Source of the DNA: Cetorhinus maximus
Lineage: Eukaryota
NCBI RefSeq assembly: GCF_964194155.1
Contig: NC_135913.1
Span: 4,898,001-4,962,000, forward strand
Length of the DNA: 64,000 nt
Direction: 5' to 3'
The position numbers and the translations under genes were made by a program. Every line of letters begins with the position of its first letter. Within the stretch, counting starts at the first letter, position 1. The notes beneath the pieces were generated by a model. That model had not been told where the DNA came from and searched no databases. It saw only the letters and a list, made by a program, of their open reading frames with translations. Of the stretch, positions 7,344 to 59,489 are shown one piece after another.

Positions 7344-7935
7344 GAGGTCATATTGGAGTTGTATAAAACCTTGGTGAGGCCACTGCTGGATTACTGTGTG
7401 CAGTTCTGTTCGCCACATTATACGAAGGATGTGATTCACTGGAGGGGGTGCAGAGGAGATTCGCCAGGATGCTGCCTGTGATGAAACATTTAAGTTATGA
7501 AGAGAGGTTGGATAGACTTGGGTTGTTGTCTTTGGAGCAGAGAAGGCTGAGGGGCGACCTGCTCGAGGTGTACAAGATTATGAGGAGCATGGACAGGTTG
7601 GATAGGGAGCAGCTGTTCCCCTTAGTTGAAGGGTCAGTCACAAGGGGGCTAAAGGTCAAGGTGTGGGGCAGGAGGTTAGGGGGGATGTGGGAAAATACTT
7701 TCCTACCTAGAGGGTGGTGCTGGTCTGGATTGCACTGCCCGGGAGGGTCGTGGAGGTGGATTGCCTCACATCCTTTAAAATACCTGGATGAGAACTTGGC
7801 ACGTCATAACATTCAAGGCTATGGGCCAAGTGCTAGTAAATGGGGTTAGGTAGGTAGGTTAGGTGTTTCTCACGTGTTGGTGCAGACTCAATGGGCCGAA
7901 GGTCCTCTTCTGCACTGTGATTCTGTGATTCTATG

Positions 7936-44480: not shown

Positions 44481-44615
44481 CTAAAAACAAGTTATATTTC
44501 GTTAAATTTATAAAACTCATTATGCAATCTACCCAATTTTAGAACTGGTTACCACCACTAAACCCAGGGAAACTCAGGGACCTGTGTACTTGTATGCCAA
44601 GATCTCTCACTTCAT

Positions 44616-44703
44616 CTACAGTTTCACACTCAGTCCAGATCTTGTACCCTGCAGCGACTTCAGTTGATATTTTCCATTCAAACTGAACTGATTCTTCACC
44701 AGC
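44616..44703 (-). CDS. NLR last coding exon
   Basis: tttcag| acceptor; (W)[28 protein letters not shown]. Confidence 0.85.
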
Positions 44704-47700
44704 CTGAAACAGATTAAAGATTAAACAGAAAATAAACAGATTCAAAACAACTTATAACATAGGAGGCTGGGTTTAACACAACATTAATAATTACCCATAC
44801 AATGATGTACAATTTATATGCTGTTTTTACATTAAACATAAGAGTTACACTAACCAGATCAGCTCCAGACTTATGCATTTCAGTATGATGCGGCGGAGAG
44901 CAGAGACAGATTGATCTGTAAGTGCATTTGATCCCAGGTTTAGAACCGTTAGTGACCGGTTTGTTTCGAGTGCAGAGGCGAGATCTTCAGCACAAGAATC
45001 TGAGAGATTGACAGCCCATAGACTGGTGACCAGAGAAGGAAATATCAGAAAATGAGTTCATTGTCAATGTTAATTAAACACAATATTCAACATCCAGCTT
45101 TATAAGCAGAAGCTTACACTTACTCCAGTTTTTGTATTTTACAGTCCGGATTCCTCAGAGCCACATGCAGTAGCTCCTTCACCCCTGGATCTCCCAGTTT
45201 ATTGTTCCTCAGCCTAAATGCAAACATATACAGATTGAGATACAAACTGAATCAGGGATATGAGATATTTTCATCTTGAATTTCCCAAAAAACACAAAAT
45301 ATTTCAGGAAATTAATCTCCTGATTTTCTATGACAGTGAATCTCAGTCTGTCCTGCTCCATGTACATTTGGGTACCATCAGGAAATGTGTTTATTAAATA
45401 AAGCGTTGTCTGTGTAGAGCTTATATAGAGTCATAGAGTTCTACAGCACAGAAAGAGGCCCTTCAGCCCATTGTGCCCACGTCGGTCATCAAGCCCCCAT
45501 CTACCATAATCCCATTTTCAAATCCTCAAATCTAAACCTCCTGCTCCTTACCTTAAATCTGTGCTGCCTGGTCATTGACCCTTCTACTATGGTAAAACTT
45601 TCTTCCTATCAACCTTATTTATGCCCCTCATAATTTTGTACACATCAATCAGGTCCCCTCTCAGCTTTCTCTGCTCTAAGGAAAACAACCCCAGCCTATC
45701 TAGTTTCTCTTCATAGCTGAAATGCTCCAGCCCAGGCAACATCCTCTGCACCCTCTCGAATGCAATCACATTCTTACTATAGTGTGGTGACCAGAACTGC
45801 ACACAGTACTCCAGATGTGGTCTAACCAAGTTTTGGTTTCAGTTTAAATCTCATACACTGCAGCCAACTCCCAGAACTCAATGTAATCTCATGAGCACAG
45901 TTCCCCACTGAATTGGCTGGCACAAAGGGGCACAATTTCTGGTGGGTGAGCGGTAGTGTATTGAAAATTACACTGTGTGTTTTGTCCACTTGAGGCTACC
46001 ATGCACACATGTACTAGCAAAGGGAGTGAAAAGAAATTAAGAAGGATCCATGTTTTAACAGCACCTTTTAATTGACCCTCAGTCCGCTCACTTTCCCGGA
46101 GGCTCCGAGAGGTCACTGACAGCCCTCAGCATGTTTGAGAAACGTGTGTCATACACGTTTCTCAAACGTTTCTCATACGCTGATTCTAAAATCCTGGATT
46201 TTAAAGGAAAGGGGTGATTTTTCCCCAAATTAAGTGATGAAGCAGTATTCCCCTATACTTTTCACTGTTACACACTCTGTCTCCCAGAATTTTATGTAAC
46301 AAGGAGGTCATGTTGAACATGTATAAAACACTAGTTAGGGCTCATCTGGAGCAATGTGTCCAGTTCTGGGCGCCATACTTGAGGAAGGTGTGTGAAGGCA
46401 TTGGAGAGAGTACAGAGGAGATTCACAGAAATGATTCCAGGGATAAGGAACTGTAGCTATGAGGATAGATTGGAGAGGTTGGGACTGCTTTCCTTGGAGA
46501 AAGGAAGGCTGAAAGGAGACTTGATAGAGGTATTTAAGATCCTGAGGGGTATGGACAGGGTAAATAGAGAGAAACTGTTCACACTCATGACAGCATCAAG
46601 AACCAGAGGGCACAGGTTCAAAATAATTGGCAAAAGGAGTAAATGCGAAGTGAGGAGAAAAGATTTCAACCAGAGGGTGGTTGGATTCTGGAATGAACTT
46701 CCTGAGGGGCTGGAGAAGGAAGGTTTGATCGAGGTTTTCAAAAGGGAATTGGATTGTTATCTGAAAAGAAAGAATGTGCAAGGTTACTGGAATAAGTCGG
46801 AGGAGTGGGATTAGATAGAATGCTCTTTCATGCAGCCAGTGCAAACTCAATGGGCTGAATGGCCTCCTTCTGCACTGTAAAAATTCTATGATTTCACTTT
46901 ATTCCTCACTGAATTGCCATTGAATTAGCTCTACAGTTATTTAAAATGGCACAACAGTATTTGGGGAATTTTTGGAAGGTCCTACCCTGAGCAGGGTCAT
47001 GCACATAGCGGGTGGACTATGGCAAATTCCCAGTTTTACTGCCTCTGGTTTGCCTGGAGTTTCCCACTATGTGTGCCGCTGCTGACTGGTATGTGTCTGT
47101 ACTCCGGGGGTAATGCACAAACCCATCAGTTTGGAGCTTTTATCCCAAGTGATTTAAGCTTCCATGTTCAATGAAGTAACGACTTGGATTACTAGCAAGG
47201 AGCCTGACTCCACCACTTCTGACACAGCAGCAAGAGTGCTGAGTGAATTAGATATCCCTGACTGAGTGTCCTGTAATTGCTGTGGCATTAGGTAACCTAA
47301 TACCACCCTGTGAAGAAAGCTCACCTCTTCAACTGGCAGTTCACTGCCCTGAAACTGTTCTTTTCTCCCTGTAACTCAATATTTGGTGTTCCTGCTTCCC
47401 TCGCAAATGTACGTTGACAATCCGGTAACTGCAGCTTACCACTACACCTTAGACGGGGTGGGATGATGTGACAGGAGGACTGCTGCAATGAGTGATGGAC
47501 TATGTGAAAGTTACAGTGAGGAAGATCCGCTTCACTGGACATGACTTAGACAGTGAGAGAAATGGCAATTATTCTTGTAATGAATTTATCAGACCCTTTC
47601 TTTGACCTGTATTGAATGGTCCATTAGGGGCTGTAAAATCCAACACAAGGGTCCATCTTAAATTTTCCAGTCCTTAGGGAATTACTAAATGATCCTCTTA

Positions 47701-50700
47701 TCATTGGTCATATTTGTATTGAATCTGTTTCTCTGGTTTAACTGAACTGTTTGTTTCCTTTCGTTACAGAGCAGCAAAACAACGTAAGACTCTTCCACAA
47801 TTCGCCCAAAGATTAAAGACAAATAAACAGTTACCTCAGCACTTCGCATTTATGAAGTGCAGATCTCAGCTCTTGGAATCCATCACAATGAATGCAGCAG
47901 GACTCCAGATTAAGTTCTACTATTGTATCACACAATCCAATCATGCGAGACAAGACTGTGCAGTCAACTGGCTTCAGGACCAATCCACAAAACATAAGTA
48001 CTTCTGCAGACCCGACTGTGACCCGAGCTAGTTCTTTATTCTGAGATTCAACCAGGTAGTGAAATGAATTCAGAAGTTTCATTTTACCAGCTTCACTCTC
48101 TGTCTTTCCAATCTGAACTTTAACCTTCCCCTTCAACCAGTCAATCACTTGGCAGGTTACTTGATGAAGAAATGGACCCAGAACCTCCTCAAGGGGCCGA
48201 GCTGACTGTGGGGAGGAGAGACCAGCAACAAAACGGAGAAATATCTCAAATCGTCCATCTTCCTTGCTGTAAGCTTCACTAAGGAGTTTCTGGATGCCCC
48301 CGGGATCTGGATTCAGGAATTGTGCGAGTGCAGCTACAAACTCTTGGATGGTGAGGTGTGGGAATGTGTAAACCACACTCTTGGCAGAATCATCTCTCTC
48401 CAAAAGTTCCATCAGGAACCCAGACAGGAACTGGGAAGGTTGCAGATTGTACGTGATCAAATCTTCATTCCTGAACACAATCTTCTTCTCAGAGACTCCT
48501 GTGAAGGCCATCTCACCAAGCTTCAGGAACACATCACGTGAACTTTCAATCTCTGGGCTATGGTTTTTCAGAATGTTGTAAATATAGGAGGAATATAGTT
48601 GGGTGATGGTCTTGGGAACTTGCTGCTGTTTCCTGTCTCTTTGTGTAAAGAAGGGGCCCAGTGACAGACCGAGGATCCCGCAGTAGGAAGGGTTGTAGCA
48701 CATGGCGTACAGGATCTCGTTCTCCTCCACGTGTTTGAAAACAGCTGTTGCCACTTCCTGATCTTCAAAATACTTGTTGAAATATTCTTTCCGTTCATCA
48801 CCAACAAATCCCAGAATTTCCGCCCAGACACTGATCTCAGCCTTATCCAATAAATGTAATGCAGTGGGGCGGCTGGTCACTAGCACTGAACATCCTGGGA
48901 GCAGCTTGTGTTGTATTAAACTGTACACAATGTCAGACACTTCACACTGGCATTCAGGATCTGTGCACATGAACTGAGGTTCTGTATTTCTTCGATTGTC
49001 AGCAAAGTCAATATTCTCCCTGAATTCATCCAAACCATCTAATACAAACAGCAATCCCTCTGGGTTCTTCCAGAGCTCTCCCAGAGCATTCTCAAAGTAA
49101 GGATACTGATCCAATATCAGATTCCTCAGGTTTGTTCTGCAGTTAATATCGTTCAAATCCCGGAATTTGAAACTGAAAACAAATTGAAAGTGTGGGTATA
49201 TTTTCCCTGTGGCCCAATCATAAACAATCTTTTGTACCATTGTTGTTTTCCCAATTCCTAGGACTCCACTCACTGCTACTGTACTCCCAGATTTGGATTT
49301 CCTCTGGGAAAAACTACCCTTGAACAATTGATTACTTCGGATTTTTTCCAGTTCTTTCCGCAGATGTTTCTCTCTCAATTCTTCACGGTCTCGCCCCCTT
49401 GCCAGCAGTTCATGGTCTACAAGTGTCCGATCTCGAACAGTGGCAATGACCGTTAGCTCAGCATATCGGTCAGCCAGCTGGAAAATCTTAACCTTCTCCT
49501 TCATGAGAGTGTTCACTCTCAGTGTTTCCGTTTGTACCCGGAGTGTTTCCTTGTGTTTCTGTTGAATATCTTAAATTAGAACAGACAAAAAGAGGTTATC
49601 ACTGTTAGTTGTATTGACATAATAACGACTTCTCAAGACCATTTCAATATTCAGAAAAATATTGCAAGATTTAACTTACAGCTTTAATAGAGCTACATGT
49701 AGAATTTAAAACTTTGTTATTCGAAACTTCACTTGACAGTTAACAATGGCGGAGGAAATTATCAAATTTCACTTTATTCTAATATTTACTGAACAGTGAG
49801 ATGTCTACAAAGGTGATGTTTTCGCTCTGATGGTTAATACTCTATTCCTCCTCTGTACTATAAACATAACTCATCTCACATGATCCATGTTAGTGCACAA
49901 TAGAGATCCTAATGGATCAAGTGTTGAAACAGCCAATGATGTGAAAGTTCTGCAGAATTGGGAAACAGGACATTTAATATCCCCGGAAGGGGAATGTGCC
50001 GTGCATGGTCTGTAGAGTGCTACTGTTACTAAAGCGGACGTTAGGCAGGTTATCTGCGAATTGTGTGCACTGAGAGATCGACATACTGTTCCTGGACAGG
50101 AGTTTCACTATTATTGCAAAAAACCTTAGCCAGTTAGCTGCGGTATTGAAGGCAATGCAGGAGGAGTAGACTGTAAATGGATGCACCTTCCATTCTGCAT
50201 TCCATTTGACCCACAGCTGAACTTACAATCACATGTCCTCTCCATCACCAACACCACATTCAAACATCGTTGTAATATTTACCATCTCCACCCTTGCTTT
50301 CACTCATCTGCTGCTGATACAAGCATTGATGAGTGTATACCTCAAGAACCGACTATTCCAATAATCTCCTGGTCTGTGATTTCTCTATCTGTAATCTTGA
50401 GCTTATTCAAAAATCTGCTGTTCAAATTCTAACTCATGCCTTGTTCCGTTCACCCATCACCACTGTGCTCATTAACTTCCATCAGCTTTCATTCTGGTGA
50501 AATGTCAAATTCAAAAATTCTTATTTTTGTTTTCTGATTTCCCACCTCTTCCTACCTCTGTAAGCTCCAATACTAAAATGCTCAGAGATCTCTGCACTGC
50601 TCCAAACATCACCTCTTGTGCATCTCCACATTTCACTGTTCAAACATTGGCTGGCATGTCTTCAGCTTTCTGGGCCCTAAATTCTGGAATTCAGTTCTAA

Positions 50701-53700
50701 GTCCTTCCCAGCCCTAAACAGAAGTTCCTCCATTATTATATCAGGGCCTTGGGCAGTTTAACTAGGGTATTGTGGATAGTTGGCAGTTACATAATGAGAT
50801 AAATAGAAGCAAGAGTAGGCCAGTTAGTCCCTCGAGCCTTCTTCGTCATTCAATAGCATCATGGTTGATCTGATTGTGGTCCTAAACCCGTTTTCCTGCA
50901 TGTCCTCCGTTGTGGGTTGAACATCTGTCTATCTTAGCCTTGAATGTATTAAATGACAGAGCCTCCGCTGTTTTCTGGGGTAGAGAATTCAAAAGATTAA
51001 CAACTGTTTGAGAGAATAAATTTCTCCTCATCTCCCTCTTAATTGGGAGGCCCCATATTTTGAAACTATGCCTCTAGTTCTAGATTCTCCCACTAGGGGA
51101 AACATCCTCTCAGCATCTACCCTGTCAAGCCCACTCAGGATCCTATCTGTTTCAACAAGATCTCTCATTCTTCAAACTAGGATGAGTATCACAGGATCAC
51201 AGAATCACAAAATCACACAGTGCAGAAGAGGCCCTTCGGCCCATCGAGTCTGCACCAGCACGTGAGCAACAACTGACCTACCTACCTAATCCTATTTACC
51301 AGCACTTGGCCCATAGCCTTGAATGTTATGATGTGCCAAATGCTCATCCAGGTACTTTCTTAAAGGATGTGAGGCAACCCGCCTCCACCACTCTCCCGGG
51401 CAACACATTCCAGACGTCACCACCCTCTGAGTAAAAAAAGTTTTCCTCACATTCCCCATAAACCTCCTTCCCCTCACCTTGAACTTATGTCCCCTCGTGA
51501 CTGACCCTTCAACTAAGGAGAACAGTTGCTCCCTATCCACCCTGTCCATACACCTCATAATCTTGAACACCTTGATCAGGTCGCCCCTCAGCCTTCTCTG
51601 CTCCAACGAAAACAACCCAAGTCTGTCCAACCTCTCTTTATAACTTAAATGTTTCATCCCAGGCAACATCCTGGTGAATCTCCTCTGACCCCCTCCAGTA
51701 CAAACACATCCTTCCTATAATGTGGTGACCAGAACTGCACACAGTACTCCAGCTGTGGACTCACCAAGGTCCTATACAACTCCAACATGACCTCCCTACT
51801 TTTGTAATCTATGCCTCGATGGATAAAGGCAAGTGTCGTGCCTTTTTCACCACCCCACTAACATGCTCCTCCGCCTTCAGAGATCTATGGACACACATGC
51901 CAAGGTCCATTTGTTCCTCAGAACTTCCTAGTGTCATGCCGTTCATTGAATACTTAGAACCATAGAAAAGTTACAGCACAGAAGGAGGCCATTCAGGTGC
52001 CCTTTCTAATCCCACCGTCTTGCACCCGGCCCATAGCCCAGCAGCCTACAGCACTTTAGTGCAAATCCAGGTACTCTCCAGGTACTTTTTTTAAAAAAGA
52101 GTTTAAAGTTTCTGCCTCTACCACCAACTTGGGCAGCGAATTCCAGACACCCACTACCCTCTGCATAAAAAAGTTCTTCCTCATGTCCCTTCTGCCACTT
52201 ATCTTGAATCTATGTCCCCTGGTTCTAGAATTCTCTGTCAAGGGAAACAATTTTATCCTGTCCACTCTATCTATTCCCCTCATAATTTTGTACACCTCAA
52301 TCAAGTCACCTCTCAGCCTTCTATGTTCTAAGGAAAATAACCCCAACCTATCCAATCTCTCCTTGTAGCTACTCTTTTCTAACCCTGGCAACATTCTTGT
52401 AAACCTCCTCTGCACTCCCTCCAGAGCTATTACATCCTTCCTGTAATGTGGTGACCAGAACTGTACACAATACTCCAGTTGTGGCCTCACTAGTGTTTTA
52501 TACAATTCCAACATTATATCCTTACTTTTATATTCTATACCTCTGCCAACGAAGGAGAGCATTCCAAATGCCTTCTTTACAACCTTGTCTACTTGAACTT
52601 CAGGGACCTGTGTACTTGTACGCCAAGATCTCTTCATTGTCAAATTACTTCTTCCAAAGTGTATCACCTCACACTTTTCAGGGTTAAATTCCATCTGCCA
52701 CTTATCTGTCCATTTGACCATACCGTCTATATTTTCCTGTAGCCCAAGACACTCAACCTCACTGTTAACCACCCAACCAATCTTTGTGTCATCCGCAAAC
52801 GTACTAATCCTACCCCCCACATAGTCATCTATGTCGTTTATATAAATGACGAATAATAGGGGCCCCAGCATAGATCTCTGTGGTACGTCACCGGACACTG
52901 GCTTCCAGTCACTAAAGCAGCCTTCTGTCATCACCCTCTGTCTCCTACAATTAAGCCAATTTTGAATCTACCTTATCAAATTACCCTGTATCCCATGTGC
53001 ATTTGCCTTCGTTAGAAGTCTCCCATCTGGGACCTTGTCAAAGGCTTTGCTGAAATATAAACTACATCAACTACACTACCCTCATCTAAACACCAGGTCA
53101 CCTCCTCAAAAATTCCAATCAAATTTGTTCGGCATAACCTCCCCCTGGCAAAGCCATGCTGACTATCCCTGATCAAACCTTGCCTCTCCAAGTGGAGATA
53201 GATTCTTTCCTTCAGAATTTTCTCCAATTGTTTCCCTATCGCTGACGTGAGACTCACTGGCCTGTCGTTCCCTGGCTTATCTCTCCAAACCTTCTTAAAT
53301 AGCGGAACCACATTAACTGTTCTCCAGTCCTCTGGCACCTCCCCCGTGGCCAGAGAGGAATTAAAAATTTGGGTCAGATACCCTGCAATCTCCTCCCTTA
53401 GCAGTCTGGGACACAAATCATCCGGACCTGGAGATTTGTCCACTTTTAAGCCTGCCAACACCTCCAATACCTTGTCGCTCCCAATATCATATGCTAGATT
53501 CGTTCCCACATTTGATGAGAGTTAAGTGGAGTCCTTTATCCCCACTTTAAGGAAACACAGCTACGCAACCACACGTCACTGAACGAACCTCACTCCCTAC
53601 TGACCCAGCCCCACACCCAACTACCCGGTCCCGCGCCTCAGTGACTCAACCCTGCAACTGCAACCACTGACCCTGCCCTGTACCCACACCCCACTGACCC

Positions 53701-56700
53701 AGACCCGCGCCTACAACCTACACCCAGCCCCACAGCTCACTGATGCAGCCCTACCCCCAACTGACCCGGGCCCACACACCATTGACACAGCCCCACACCC
53801 AGACCCATGACACAGCCCCACAGCCAGACCCATGACACAGCCCCACACCCAGACCCATGACACAGCCAGACCCATGACACAGCCCCACAGCCAGACCCAT
53901 GACACAGCCCCACAGCCAGACCCATGACACAGCCCCACACCCAGACCCATGGCACAGCCCCACACCCAGACCCACACCCAGACCCCTGACACAGCCCCAC
54001 ACCCAGATCCATGGCACAGATCCACAACAAGACTCATGGCACAGATCCACACCCAGACTCATGGCACAGACCCACACCCAGACCCATGACATAAACCCAA
54101 ATCCACATCCACACCCCAGTGACACAGCCCCACAACCACATCCCTTTGACCAGGCTCTGCACTCCCTCACCCAGCCACCCACCTGCAACCCACTGACCCA
54201 GCCCAGAATCCCACTGACCCGGCCCCATGCCTTACCAACACGGCCCCGCGTCCCGCTTACCCAGCCGTGCACCCCACTGACCCAGCCCCATGCCTTACCA
54301 ACACGGCCCCGCGCCCCGCTTACCCAGCCCAGAATCCCACTGACCCGGCCCCATGCCTTATTGACACAGCCCCACCAACACGGCCCCGCGGCCCGCTTAC
54401 CTAGTCCTGCACCACACTGACCCAATCCTAAGCCCTGCGAATTGTGTACGAAATAACATGTGTTAATTGTGTGCAGGCCGTGGGTGTTGGTTGGGGTTTC
54501 ACTTGTGCACGTCTGAAGGGGCACTTATGAAACATTGGGGCATACTTCCAACTAGCATCATAAAGGGATGGCCCGCAAGAATTAGAAGAATAAAATACAT
54601 ACTTAACTGCCCTTTAAAATTACACTTTCCATTCCATTCACCGGCGTTGCTTGAGGCCTGCCTCCAATGACACCTCGCAGGCCCCAGAGAAGTGTTTTAC
54701 AGCAATTGCTCCCATATAGCAGGAATGCTTTGAGGGCCAGGGAAATTGACAGAACAGGGAGCAGGTAAGTTTCTAAGGTAAGTGGATAGGTTTTGGGGGT
54801 TGTGGGGGGGATGGGTTGGGAAATCAGGGGTGTGGTGGGGTGTTGGGGCTCAGAGTTTGGGAGGCTCGGAAGTATTCGAGGATCAAGGGAGTGGGGAGGT
54901 TGGGATGGTGGGGGGATTGGAGGTTGGGGATCGGTTGTCAGGGGAGGTGAGGGTGGGGAAGTTCAGGCGTTGGGGGTGGGGGGGGGTAGAGTCGGATGTC
55001 AGGGTGTGGGGAGGGGGTTGGAGGGGTATAAAAGTCAGATGTCAGGATGTGGAGGGGTGTGAGGCCAGGGTGCTTGAGGGCAGTCGGGGTGTGAGGGTTT
55101 CATAGGGCGTGGGGGTTGGGGCATCAGAGGTCCAGTTGGTGGCAAGGGTGGAAGTCTGAGGCCCGGGGGTTGCGTCCATGGAGATTCAGAGGTCGGGGGG
55201 GTGGGAGGCTGGTGGTGGTGCATGGAGTGGGGGTCGGCGGTCAGCGAGTGGGGTGTTGGAGGTTGTCGGTGTATTTGGGGGAGTCCGTGAGGGGGGATCT
55301 TTCTGGGTCTTTACAATAGTTACCCAGGAGTTAGAAGAAGTTTTAATCCTTCTAACTTTTTCTGAGTAACTATAGCTGTAACCCTGGCAAGAACCATCCA
55401 AAGTCTGCAATTTAAATCGAATTTTCAGATGGTTACCAGTGAAAGGCAATTGTCCAGAGGAAGTGTGCACTTCTGGGCAATTGCCATGCAAACCCTTAAC
55501 CTGGGAACTTTCCAGACGGATTCCCCAGCGCATCTTTGGGGTATCCCCGAAATCCAACGCTGGGGAGCTTGGAAGTTACAGCCCATTATCGTGGTTGAGT
55601 TTCAATGTTTAACTCTGTAAATACATGTAAGACTGACTAAAGAATAGCTCCACTACCTCCTACTGGCTAACCAGAATAGAACGTGGTAGCAAGAGGGTAG
55701 TTGTTTAAACTGAGGATAAAAGCGAATAAAAATCAGTCCAGAAAATACAATCCTAGCAACCATCGTGAGAAATGGCAAGGGTAAATTGTTGGTGGAATGA
55801 TTGCCGTCCGATGTTCTTGGAGTGTCAAACCGGGTCAACCGGATGACTAGTGGAAGGAGGAATTGGATATGAGGGAATAGCATTCACCCCTATCAAAGAA
55901 AAAATGAGTTATGTCCTTCGCACTGTTATTTCCTACCAGAAGCAAAGTATTTTGTGAACTGGATGCCATCAATTGTCTACTGATGAAGGTTAGTATTGTC
56001 TACTCTAGTTCTTGAATAAAATTTACAAGAAAGATTATCTATTAAATCTCTGTAAATATGGCCAGACTATGATGAATTTTGGAAAGCAGATAATTATTCA
56101 CTGGAGAAATGTTTCACGGGCGTTAATGGATTTTATAACAGTTGGGGGATCTCTGGATCGTTACCGGTGTTCAAATTGCTGGCTTGTGTCTCAGGCGTCT
56201 CATATCGATGGGCATTAAGTTCTAACCAGTTTTCAGTTCTTGAGAAAAGATTCCTTGTTGGTTCAGATCTCTGTTGCCTTGAAAAAACTCTTGGGGAAAT
56301 CGTCATTTCCTGCCCCCTTAGTGGAACCAATGTGCCATTTCACGGTGATACAATGAATAGTGGACTCGATGATTGCTAGGCTTCAAAATGGTCCTGATAG
56401 CAGACACAAGCCTCAATTAATATAAGGATTATAGACAGGTGGAATGAAGATGGAAGCAGCTTTAGCAGGTTTGGCTCTTACAGTAGGGGACTGAAGCAGA
56501 ACAACAATAATAGACGAATGAATCCCAGGAATGATCAAAGAACAGTTAATAGGTGCTTCAGTTGTGACTTGAAGTATCATTATGTGATGAACTGCCCAAA
56601 GCAGAGTGGCAGGATCCTTGAAATAACACAAGACAAAGAGCATTCTGAGGCCGATGAAGATAATGATAAATCAAAATGAATTGTACCTGTCACAAAGAGG

Positions 56701-58343
56701 ATGGGTGACTATGATGGAAATGTTTATCATGAACTCATTCTACCGTGCTATGCTAGATAGTGCTTGCACTTCAGCAGCACGTGGAACAAATTGGTTAGAA
56801 TGTTATTTGGATGCACTCGTGAGGATTGAAGCAAGGTTATGAAATATAGAGGTACTACATGGTTGGGGTTTGGTTATGATAACACATCATTCGCTAAAGA
56901 GGTTTGTGCATCCACGTAACAATGCTGAGTAGAGTTCTGGTAAATCAGGAGGGAAGTATGTGGGTGCTGGGGCAACAGGCAATGAAAAGAGAAAAAAACA
57001 GCTGGATATCTTGCCTTATTGTTGAGTTAATCCTCTCGCAAAACCTGTAAAGCTGTATCTACAAACTGCATGGTCCCTGCAGGACCACAATGTTCATTTA
57101 CAACTGCTCACAGCCAAGATAGAGGCTTTCTTTGCAGCCACGTGATTGGGTGCAGGTTCAGAGGGAAGTGTCCATTCTGTGCACTGAAAAAAATTTCTAT
57201 TCCATTCACATTTTTGCCAAAAAATAGAGGGGAGAAAGTAGAAATTGCAGCAAGTACAGACGTTAGTAATTATTCCCTATTTCTAACAGTATTCCTATTT
57301 TATGCTGGGTGTTTTGCCGTACTAGTTGAATCATTCAGTTTTTTAACATTGAAATAAGATTAATTCTACTAACCCGTTTTTCCAAAGCTTGGAGTATTCA
57401 TGAATAATAAATCAGAAGCATTTGCATTCCTTGCACCAGTTCCTGTGATCTGATCACCTTCCCCAGGAGCATGAGCTTGAATGTGGCTTTGTTCACTGGT
57501 ACCAGTTTCTGTGGTCTGATCACCTTCCCCAGAAGCAGGAGCTTGAATGTGACTTTCACTGGTGTCAGTTTCTGTGGTCTGATCACCTTCCCCAGGAGCA
57601 GGAGCTTGAATCTGACTTTGTTCACTGGCACCAGTTCCCGTGGTCTGATCACCTTCCTCAGGAGCAGGGGCTTGAATCTGACTTTGTTCACTGGTACCAG
57701 TTCTTGTGATCTGATCACCTTCCCCAGGAGCATGAGCTTGAATGTGGCTTTGTTCACTGGTACCAGTTTCTGTGGTCTGATCACCTTCCCCAGAAGCAGG
57801 AGCTTGAATGTGACTTTCACTGGTGTCAGTTTCTGTGGTCTGATCACCTTCCCCAGGAGAAGGAGCTTGAATCTGACTTTGTTCACTGGCACCAGTTCCC
57901 GTGGTCTGATCACCTTCCTCAGGAGCAGGGGCTTGAATCTGACTTTGTTCACTGGTACCAGTTCTTGTGATCTGATCACCTTCCCCAGGAGCAGGGGCTT
58001 GTATGTGACTTTGTTCACTAGCGCCAGTTCCTGTGGTTTGAGTACTATCTCTTGCAGATGGACCTTGAATCTGACTGTGTTCACTGGTAACAGATGCTGG
58101 AGTTAGACTCCTTCCAGTTGTACTGATAGCAGTGATATGTCTCTGGCTTCTTGCAACGCCTTCCAGAATGTAACTGCGTGCATTGTCGACGCTTCCTGCG
58201 GCACAAGATGCTTCGACAGTATCTGTCATGTCCCTTTCATCGATGCCGTCTATTAGGCCACGACAATGATAGCCCTCCAGAACTTGACTCGGTTCATTTA
58301 AGCATTCACGATTGCAGCAGGGTTTACACAATAATTGCCCCAT
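44616..58343 (-). CDS. NLR-family gene (acylation motif + tandem repeats + NACHT + LRR); 5 coding exons, ~1016 aa
   Basis: Exons 58343-57374, 49569-47835, 45213-45124, 45022-44855 and 44703-44616; all introns GT-AG with compatible phases; total 3051 nt in one open frame. Confidence 0.8.
44855..45022 (-). CDS. NLR LRR exon (168 nt)
   Basis: [47 protein letters not shown]; ribonuclease-inhibitor-type LRRs; AG/GT sites. Confidence 0.9.
45124..45213 (-). CDS. NLR LRR exon (90 nt)
   Basis: [29 protein letters not shown]; tttag| acceptor and |gtaagt donor. Confidence 0.9.
45425..45830 (-). mobile_element. CR1 3' fragment (intronic)
   Basis: [14 protein letters not shown]...[15 protein letters not shown]. 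Confidence 0.85.
46298..46895 (+). mobile_element. CR1 3' fragment (intronic)
   Basis: ORF 46392 encodes the CR1 ORF2 C-terminus. Confidence 0.88.
47835..49569 (-). CDS. NLR NACHT/HD1/WH/HD2 exon
   Basis: Walker A GVLGIGKT, Walker [11 protein letters not shown], sensor 1 [22 protein letters not shown]; acceptor taag|AT and donor AG|gtaact. Confidence 0.95.
50200..50700 (+). mobile_element. Old L2 LINE 3' fragment
   Basis: ctcatctgctgctga...gactattccaat...ttcacccatcaccactgtgctc, typical of the L2 ORF2 end. Confidence 0.55.
50795..53500 (-). mobile_element. Nested CR1s: family-A copy 51188-53500 interrupted by another CR1 3' end (~51956-52631), plus an older tail at 50795-51175
   Basis: RT motifs in ORFs 53012 and 52056; family-A sequence ttgacaa.gaag|tattcaatg is split by the insert; two distinct tails. 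Confidence 0.88.
53600..54430. repeat. C/A-rich minisatellites (~25-bp cccagacccatgacacagccccaca, then longer units)
   Basis: Tandem copies visible at 53786-54120 and 54190-54400. Confidence 0.85.
54780..55300. repeat. G-rich low-complexity tract
   Basis: Dense GGG/GGGG runs on the plus strand. Confidence 0.6.
56420..56930 (+). mobile_element. LTR retrotransposon relic (gag zinc knuckle + aspartic protease), probably Ty1/copia
   Basis: [16 protein letters not shown] (C-x2-C-x4-H-x4-C) followed by [20 protein letters not shown]. Confidence 0.65.
57374..58343 (-). CDS. NLR first coding exon ([10 protein letters not shown] + 22-aa repeats)
   Basis: Acceptor ttttcag| at 58360, ATG at 58343, donor ACG G|gttagt at 57374; phase 1 matches the NACHT exon. 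Confidence 0.75.
57432..58085 (-). repeat. Coding tandem repeat: ten 66/63-bp units with a 261-bp higher-order period
   Basis: SEQS(H/Q)[16 protein letters not shown](T/A) x10; tgatctgatcacc recurs at 57446, 57707 and 57968. Confidence 0.95.
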
Positions 58344-59489
58344 CTCAGCAAATTTGTCAGCTGAAAATAAGGTAATTCCAGGTTACAATTGAGTATATTA
58401 GGAAAGAACAAAAATGTATGGATTCAAATTGATCCCAATGCAGCACTGCTCAAACATTGAAAGATCAGCTCCTCAATTGTTAGATGATAAAGAGTGATTA
58501 AATATATTTCTACTCATTGATAACCTGAGCGAGTGGGGGGCACAAGTGGGGGTCGGGGTAAGTGGGGGTCGGAGCAAGTGGGGGTCGGAGCAGGGTTGGG
58601 GGGGTGGAGCGGGCGTCGGGGAAAGTGGGGGGTGAGCGGGTGAGCCGGGGTGAGTGCGCGGGTGGATCATATTTTCTGTGTTGATTTGACAGCTGGCATC
58701 ATTGACAGTAACTGTACTAATTGTGAAGCTGCTATTTCTGACTGCATCTGCAGATTAGAGCTGATATTGATGACAGTACTCTGCTCATTATAGAACTGAT
58801 ATTAATGACAGTATCTGATCTACAATTATTTTGTCTGAAGTGACTAAATCTTCAGCTAAAATAGCAGCTGCAAAATGTTGTGTTAATTCGCCATCAGCTA
58901 TTCCTCAGCTGCAACATCTTGCAGCTTATATCTTATACAAGCCAACTAACTTCAATCTGCGCTTTGCCAACCTACCTGAGGTTGCAATCCACCGAATGTT
59001 TCAACCTAGGTTAACATCAGGCTGGCACAGCGACGCTTCTGTAAGTCACCTGCTCTGTTAGGTCCCTGTGAAAAAATTACCAGTTTGCAGAATTAATCTC
59101 AATTACTGTAGCATTTAGAGCTGTGGATTAAGATTGTCAAAATCATGTTCAATTTAGGAATTGATACTATAAGAAGTCTGATTTCAAATAATTTATATCA
59201 AAAACAGGTTGTCAGGTTGCTGAAACTTGAAAATTGCTAACTCCCTCAGCAAAGGAGCACACCCAGCAGCTTAAACATATCAAGGTTAGATTAATCACGT
59301 GGGGAAAATAATGGGAGAAAATGAATTGGTATTAAATTTCACATTTTGGACTTTTTTTTTTCCATTTACTTTAACAAGGAAGCAGATTTTGATTTTGTGT
59401 GACTGTGTAAACGGGTATTAGCGAGTCACAGCTCATCTACATCACTCCCAATTTTTACTGCCACAGAAGTGAAAGGGGGTGTTCTCAAA

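Follow-up and report, generated by a model that had tools for sequence, protein, structure and literature searches.

A single-copy NLR gene of Cetorhinus maximus without a CARD, with a minimal LRR part and a candidate lipid-anchored N-terminus

The window analysed here, a 64,000-nucleotide stretch of the 4.0-Gb genome of Cetorhinus maximus (C36:4898001-4962000, C36 being contig NC_135913.1), contains a minus-strand NLR gene that lacks a CARD. The gene consists of five exons (58343-57374, 49569-47835, 45213-45124, 45022-44855 and 44703-44616), all joined at GT-AG junctions, and its spliced frame of 1016 aa plus stop has no internal stop or frameshift over 3051 nt. The initial annotation had described an intact-looking gene spliced in frame from five exons to ~1016 aa, in the order start motif, ~85 unique residues, repeats, and a direct join to the pre-NACHT segment with intact Walker A and B motifs; all of this was confirmed, and the gene model and its five-exon architecture are real. 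Contigs from another sample (two DNA runs) cover most exons, and the three checked among the exonic differences listed are two silent changes and one Lys-to-Glu. A small, possibly RNA-derived read set covers only paralogue-like pieces of the gene and repeats and is uninformative about expression.

The presumed first coding exon spans 57374..58360 on the minus strand, as do all features of the gene given below, and is phase 1 at both ends. Its ATG at 58343 lies 17 nt within the exon. The acceptor ahead of the exon, at 58360/58361, is in phase 1, and the reading frame stays open through it. The ATG has a G at both -3 and +4, a strong start context. The encoded protein opens with an acylation-like motif (58311..58343; Gly2, Lys7 and Cys6/9/10, modification predicted), followed by ~75 further unique residues and an acidic, predicted disordered array of T/Q/G/S/E/A/P-rich repeats (57435..58093). 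In this array a 66-bp unit is present in 10.1 copies, a higher-order period of 261 bp shows a 96% match, and the intervals measure 22 aa in seven of nine cases and 21 aa in the other two, in agreement with the ten 22-aa S/T/Q/G/E/P repeats first annotated. Pfam gave no match above cut-off in this exon.

The repeat exon is joined directly, in phase 1, to the NACHT exon (47835..49569), whose side of the join begins with the pre-NACHT segment and which goes on to encode the NBD, HD1, winged helix, HD2 and the first LRR-like units. Walker A (GVLGIGKT, 49244..49267) and Walker B (49025..49054) are both intact, and Pfam recognized NACHT (6.3e-39), NLRC4_HD2 (3e-17), NOD2_WH (3.4e-13) and, slightly under the curated cut-off, LRR_6 (7.9e-05). 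An LRR exon of 30 codons (45124..45213), a terminal LRR exon of 56 codons (44855..45022; skipped in one catshark isoform) and a C-terminal cap exon ending in TAG (44616..44703) complete the gene. The first count of 4-5 LRRs was too low, as the AlphaFold model of the catshark orthologue described below has seven strand-helix units in its LRR part. A fragment resembling a long interspersed nuclear element (LINE) at 44574-44620 (-) starts at or adjoins the stop codon, and the catshark protein is two residues longer.

The genome contains 70 matches to the start of the NACHT exon, mostly clustered on C36, C16 and C11, and a single match to the first exon. In a tree of 121 NACHT exons, the window NACHT is nested among expanded paralogues; it is ~70-83% identical to its sisters (core ~80%) and shares with them exon phases, terminal LRR and cap exons and a multi-megabase cluster, in which many neighbouring family copies are broken. 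An expanded NLRP-related family was described in the whale shark (Tan et al. 2021, PMC8455134), and we infer, without sequence comparison to that paper, that the window gene's family is this elasmobranch expansion. The gene belongs to the expansion as a CARD-less variant rather than a typical member. Typical members (named 'NACHT, LRR and PYD domains-containing protein 3-like' by NCBI) are multi-copy and have a CARD and longer LRR tails, whereas the window gene has no CARD module, the shortest LRR tail, a Met-Gly-Cys start, a single copy and a one-to-one orthologue. No second copy of the 22-aa repeat was found in the NLR cluster among the best 150 of 822 candidates scored, and DNA searches with the first exon and its 5' flank returned interspersed repeats only, with no paralogous exon.

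Three full-length paralogues yielded no death fold in Pfam, and NCBI names these family proteins 'PYD-containing'. The shared N-terminal domain of the paralogues was predicted to fold at a predicted local distance difference test score (pLDDT) of 94, and the first eight Foldseek rows for it include the CARDs of ARC, NLRC4, CARD8, caspase-1 and RIP2, at probability 1.0 but with weak E-values of 0.3-0.5. In a structural comparison the domain matched the NLRC4 CARD with Z 12.6 (rmsd 2.8, 88 aligned), and 37 death-fold rows with Z of at least 8 came before unrelated rows at Z 4; atlas CARD clusters matched it at 0.89, which serves as a lead only. As modelled, the N-terminal domain of the sister NLRs is a CARD invisible to Pfam. 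It is encoded by two exons (e.g. L008:8242-8412 and L009:2194-2394, +). Because Pfam misses this CARD, we searched with a family-specific profile built from 83 such domains. Among 123 database relatives, the profile matched 101 in full and 4 in part; the 18 without a match are the four isoforms of the catshark orthologue, 12 models with at most 39 residues before the NACHT, one fusion to a G-protein-coupled receptor (GPCR) and one model with a different repeat. P0088 (Heptranchias) is a family model without a CARD and with a different N-terminal repeat (AEERAQ type), which may be a mis-annotation.

The 7.8-kb intron between the repeat and NACHT exons (49570..57373) had been annotated as free of any death-fold exon, and this holds with both the family's own profile and Pfam. 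The family CARD profile has no match in the intron and finds the CARD exons of a neighbour gene at independent E-values of 4.5e-32 and 5e-23 as a positive control. None of the 34 minus-strand open stretches of at least 45 aa in the intron matches a death-fold family in Pfam, a negative outcome, on that strand, of the HMM check proposed at the outset. DNA similarity to the neighbour gene ends ~40 nt upstream of the NACHT acceptor, and profile, Pfam and DNA comparison together reveal neither an exon nor a relic of a CARD, PYD or Death domain. The intron contains reverse-transcriptase and LINE fragments and minisatellites (53683-54360), as first noted; the statement that it consists mostly of such material is supported only as far as at least 34% of it matches repeats elsewhere in 153 kb. 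NAIP has BIR domains, and among the hallmark domains of NLRP, NLRC and NAIP proteins none (PYD, CARD or BIR) matched in Pfam, either in the window protein or in the intron stretches.

The wider locus gave the same picture. Pfam scans of C36 for CARD and Death had no match and PYRIN matched only at C36:6384004, a weak test since Pfam misses the family CARD; genome scans with Pfam CARD, Death and PYD found no match within 1.4 Mb of the gene. The second exon of the CARD lies within 14 kb upstream at 44 of 49 family NACHT loci in the genome (drawn from the 70 NACHT matches after 21 partial or distant rows were dropped), and the nearest one on the same strand as the window gene lies at a distance of 814 kb. 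Of the four remaining loci without a nearby CARD, three contain stops and one is a distant copy. These data indicate that the absence of a CARD is real and unusual. One candidate CARD exon for the gene, C36:4984110-4983940 (L004:2940-3110, -), was rejected, as it has lost its acceptor AG, contains an in-frame TAG and is followed by no second CARD exon. The dead 5' modules of family genes found upstream in the same orientation comprise this exon, a further CARD first exon at L007:7676-7829 (-) and the small first exon described below; the CARD exons among them are marked by a stop, a lost acceptor or a frameshift. A family NACHT exon at C36:5713511-5713933 (-) has one stop and its nearest second CARD exon 48 kb off.

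A search with residues 1-130 retrieved a single protein cluster among 274 candidates, that of the catshark protein P0003, with four isoforms (XP_038656802/804/805/806, P0003-P0006). Like the window gene, these models have MGQLLCKxCC, 22-aa repeats in an exon joined straight to the NACHT, no CARD and a minimal LRR part; unlike it, they are automatic models, are named 'PYD-containing' without a PYD, and start 64 residues earlier. The two NACHT exons form a sister pair in the tree of 121 sequences (support 0.995) and have nine rare residues in common at positions 481-569. Over residues 1-480 the two resemble each other no more than they resemble other paralogues, and it is residues 481-579 that set the pair apart (74% identity against a median of 59%), a pattern that would fit homogenisation of the NACHT core among paralogues. 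The tails after the NACHT exon measure 114 and 116 aa in the pair, and in the other 166 of 167 database relatives, which came from searches favouring long LRR arrays, they reach at least 170 (median 287). In the AlphaFold model of the orthologue the LRR part has pLDDT ~90 and the repeat region pLDDT <50; the NACHT is poorly modelled in the full-length prediction (pTM 0.42), from which only disorder and the number of LRR units were taken. The two sharks belong to different orders, whose divergence dates back roughly 180-200 million years. Because the catshark orthologue has the same build, the CARD-less architecture is old and not a fresh deletion, which speaks against the recently deleted pseudogene that had been considered at first.

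The consensus of the repeat is identical at 20 of 22 positions between the window and catshark genes. Four horn-shark paralogues (P0013, P0015, P0017 and P0087) also start with a 22-aa unit (16/22 identical) and have a similar exon end, and there the repeat sits at the free N-terminus, followed by a CARD and many LRRs. Since these paralogues have the repeat together with the CARD, the repeat predates the loss of the CARD and was not a tether at first; only in the CARD-less pair were a Met-Gly-Cys start and the unique stretch seen. The notion of a long disordered tether stands as a predicted disordered spacer and not as an account of the origin of the repeat, which in the horn shark lies ahead of the CARD. 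We propose that three CARD-module exons were lost from a horn-shark-type ancestor (repeat exon, CARD, NACHT and many LRRs). Comparison of junctions suggests that both ends of this module were in phase 1, which would let the repeat exon splice onto the NACHT in frame.

The start motif is identical at 10 of 11 positions between the window gene and the catshark (MGQLLCKACC), compared with 18 of 43 in the aligned residues that follow (p = 0.004, a post hoc value for a segment chosen after inspection) and 3 of 6 just upstream of the Met. Met-Gly is conserved in both species, and Gly2, Lys7 and Cys6, 9 and 10 fit dual acylation. Lys7 is reported to favour N-myristoylation, which in Fyn comes before palmitoylation, and Ser or Thr is preferred at position 6 (PMC2133112). 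The acylation signature noted from the outset is selectively conserved; it departs from the GxxxS/T consensus at Cys6, and it begins inside an internal-type exon, with an upstream start possible. Myristoylation-like starts may recur in the family, as 5 of 165 family proteins have one while keeping the CARD, including stingray models that start MGQCFSS. CARD-bearing models with such starts are P0173, P0177, P0178 and P0180 (Hypanus), P0155 (Hemitrygon), and P0010 and P0030 (Mustelus).

With a paralogue-like nucleotide-binding core but neither CARD nor variable LRRs, a protein of this build cannot recruit ASC or a caspase by the usual route. The reading we favour, tentatively and at somewhat less than an even chance, is that this intact single-copy gene with a minimal LRR part encodes a lipid-anchored, non-signalling brake on its CARD-bearing sisters. 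Translation would start at Met-Gly, with Gly2 myristoylated and Cys6/9/10 palmitoylated, and this dual acylation would keep the protein membrane-bound, its NACHT-LRR part being carried on an acidic disordered spacer of ~220 residues. The paralogue-like NACHT could then enter oligomers of activated sisters while contributing no CARD, and the lower CARD density of such mixed oligomers would dampen the recruitment of ASC or caspase at that membrane. Without variable LRRs the protein would offer little surface for varied ligands, and a regulatory role fits with the survival of a single orthologous gene in a cluster of fast turnover. A lipid anchor combined with a regulatory role is plausible on the sequence evidence.

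Known systems offer partial likenesses. Groups 3 and 4 of the zebrafish NLR-B30.2 genes are described as having N-terminal peptide repeats without a death fold, as the window gene does, but they form a separate family of many copies with ~30-aa repeats, FISNA and often B30.2, and that text contains no mention of 'myristoyl' (10.1101/022061). The plant group II CNLs SUMM2 and RPS5 are reported to be N-myristoylated NLRs acting through helper NLRs (PMC13043302); they resemble the window gene, by analogy only, in an N-terminal Met-Gly plus Cys anchor and in signalling through other NLRs, and differ in their NB-ARC and coiled coil, an M-G-x-C-x-S/T motif and the lack of a repeat spacer. NAIP, which acts through NLRC4 (PMC3779445), is similarly an NLR working via a CARD-bearing partner, although it binds ligand. 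NOD1 and NOD2 show lipid-driven membrane targeting of animal NLRs, but keep their CARDs and are S-palmitoylated on internal cysteines (PMC8061762). A literature search, with most subscription journals outside its coverage, found no CARD-less or N-myristoylated NLR from sharks or other animals. Shark inflammasome sensors are barely described, and a CARD invisible to Pfam leads to their architecture being misread. In a family of quick turnover, one gene with no CARD and a minimal LRR part has been kept with a conserved lipidation-like start, which points to a dedicated regulator; if the acylation is true, the anchoring of NLRs by N-terminal lipids, which is established in plants, would extend to vertebrates.

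Several points weigh against a lipid-anchored brake. The gene is known in two species only, within the searches made: no Mustelus, Carcharodon or Heterodontus model with this N-terminus was found, although the database includes these species; a C-terminal homologue search, with its rows ordered by LRR number, gave no further orthologue among the best 120 of 816 rows; and an atlas search with residues 1-110 gave no usable match. P0126, the sole match of the unique N-terminus among 1.84 billion representatives, was rejected as an unrelated repetitive protein. The window protein deviates at no fewer than 19 near-invariant family positions, to which the catshark protein mostly conforms, and these departures could mean relaxed selection. 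Position 6 is Cys in both species, and all four catshark models start 64 residues ahead of the Met-Gly; that extension, if used, would block co-translational myristoylation. It has no counterpart in the window or in the 89 kb upstream, beyond residues inside the shared exon, and may for this reason represent leader sequence that is not translated and that the annotation pipeline read through; a genome search with it found no match, but missed a known 15-residue match as well and so had no working control. A decayed small first exon 30 kb upstream (C36:~4988714-4988626, L004 ~7626-7714, -) has lost its usual ATG and kept its donor and a second ATG; spliced to the gene, it would add nine in-frame residues and remove the N-terminal Gly. 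The start codon, the 57374/49569 junction and transcription are predictions.

These observations feed directly into an alternative that we regard as possible but doubtful, in which the CARD-less protein starts upstream and is not myristoylated, its Cys cluster being palmitoylated alone, metal-binding or disulfide-forming, and acts in the cytosol as a regulator comparable to the zebrafish group 3/4 NLRs. The frame open across the acceptor, the catshark extension, the in-frame ATG of the relic exon and Cys6 would all agree with it, whereas the conservation of Met-Gly-Gln and Lys7 next to a poorly conserved upstream flank, and the lack of a counterpart of the extension near the window gene, argue for the Met-Gly start. 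We consider it unlikely that the protein is instead a membrane-anchored sensor or nucleator that detects a signal at the membrane and seeds oligomers of CARD-bearing paralogues, in the manner of NAIP with NLRC4 or of myristoylated plant SUMM2 with its helpers (PMC3779445, PMC13043302). Its intact Walker motifs and paralogue-like NACHT core would allow this role, but the variable LRR exons have been lost and the gene has stayed single-copy and conserved while its sisters multiplied, unlike what would be expected of a ligand-chasing sensor; the sensor role suggested initially is weakened accordingly. Equally unlikely is the broader proposal that the acyl anchor replaced the CARD and that the gene, kept across two shark orders, nucleates or controls the inflammasomes of ~40 CARD-bearing sisters at the membrane, in parallel to SUMM2/RPS5-type plant NLRs and with independent acylation-like starts on CARD-bearing ray NLRs.

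Two further alternatives are far less probable than these. An untranscribed or decaying leftover of duplication in Cetorhinus maximus, which we judge very improbable, would agree with the dead 5' family exons upstream, the broken neighbours in the cluster and the substitutions at near-invariant positions, but not with an open 3051-nt frame, an orthologue of the same build and exonic differences of which the three checked are two silent and one Lys-to-Glu. The long disordered spacer predicted from the orthologue model might also act as a tripwire, with a pathogen protease cutting the Gln-rich repeat and releasing the NLR from the membrane. The S-x-I-Q-A stretch of the repeat resembles the sites of Gln-specific viral proteases, which counts for this idea. 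We nevertheless find it highly improbable. The tripwire region of CARD8 is reported to evolve rapidly, whereas the unit here is conserved at 20 of 22 positions between species, and the horn-shark units have Gln-His at the S-x-I-Q-A site. Cleavage of NLRP1 is described as freeing a C-terminal CARD; here Pfam found neither FIIND nor C-terminal CARD of the NLRP1/CARD8 type in the exons or the orthologue, and the protein ends after the LRR cap. The earlier suggestion of activation by protease cleavage of the repeat is weakened to the same extent.

Two neighbouring features stand apart from this gene. A broken seven-transmembrane receptor gene at 14294-15256 of the window (-), with stops and frame breaks, has no Pfam match at 0.01 and is like the GPCR part of the catshark-genus model P0120 (E 1e-8). 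On the contig that carries the NLR cluster, the PYRIN-domain exon at C36:6384004-6384210 (+) is one of four genome-wide.

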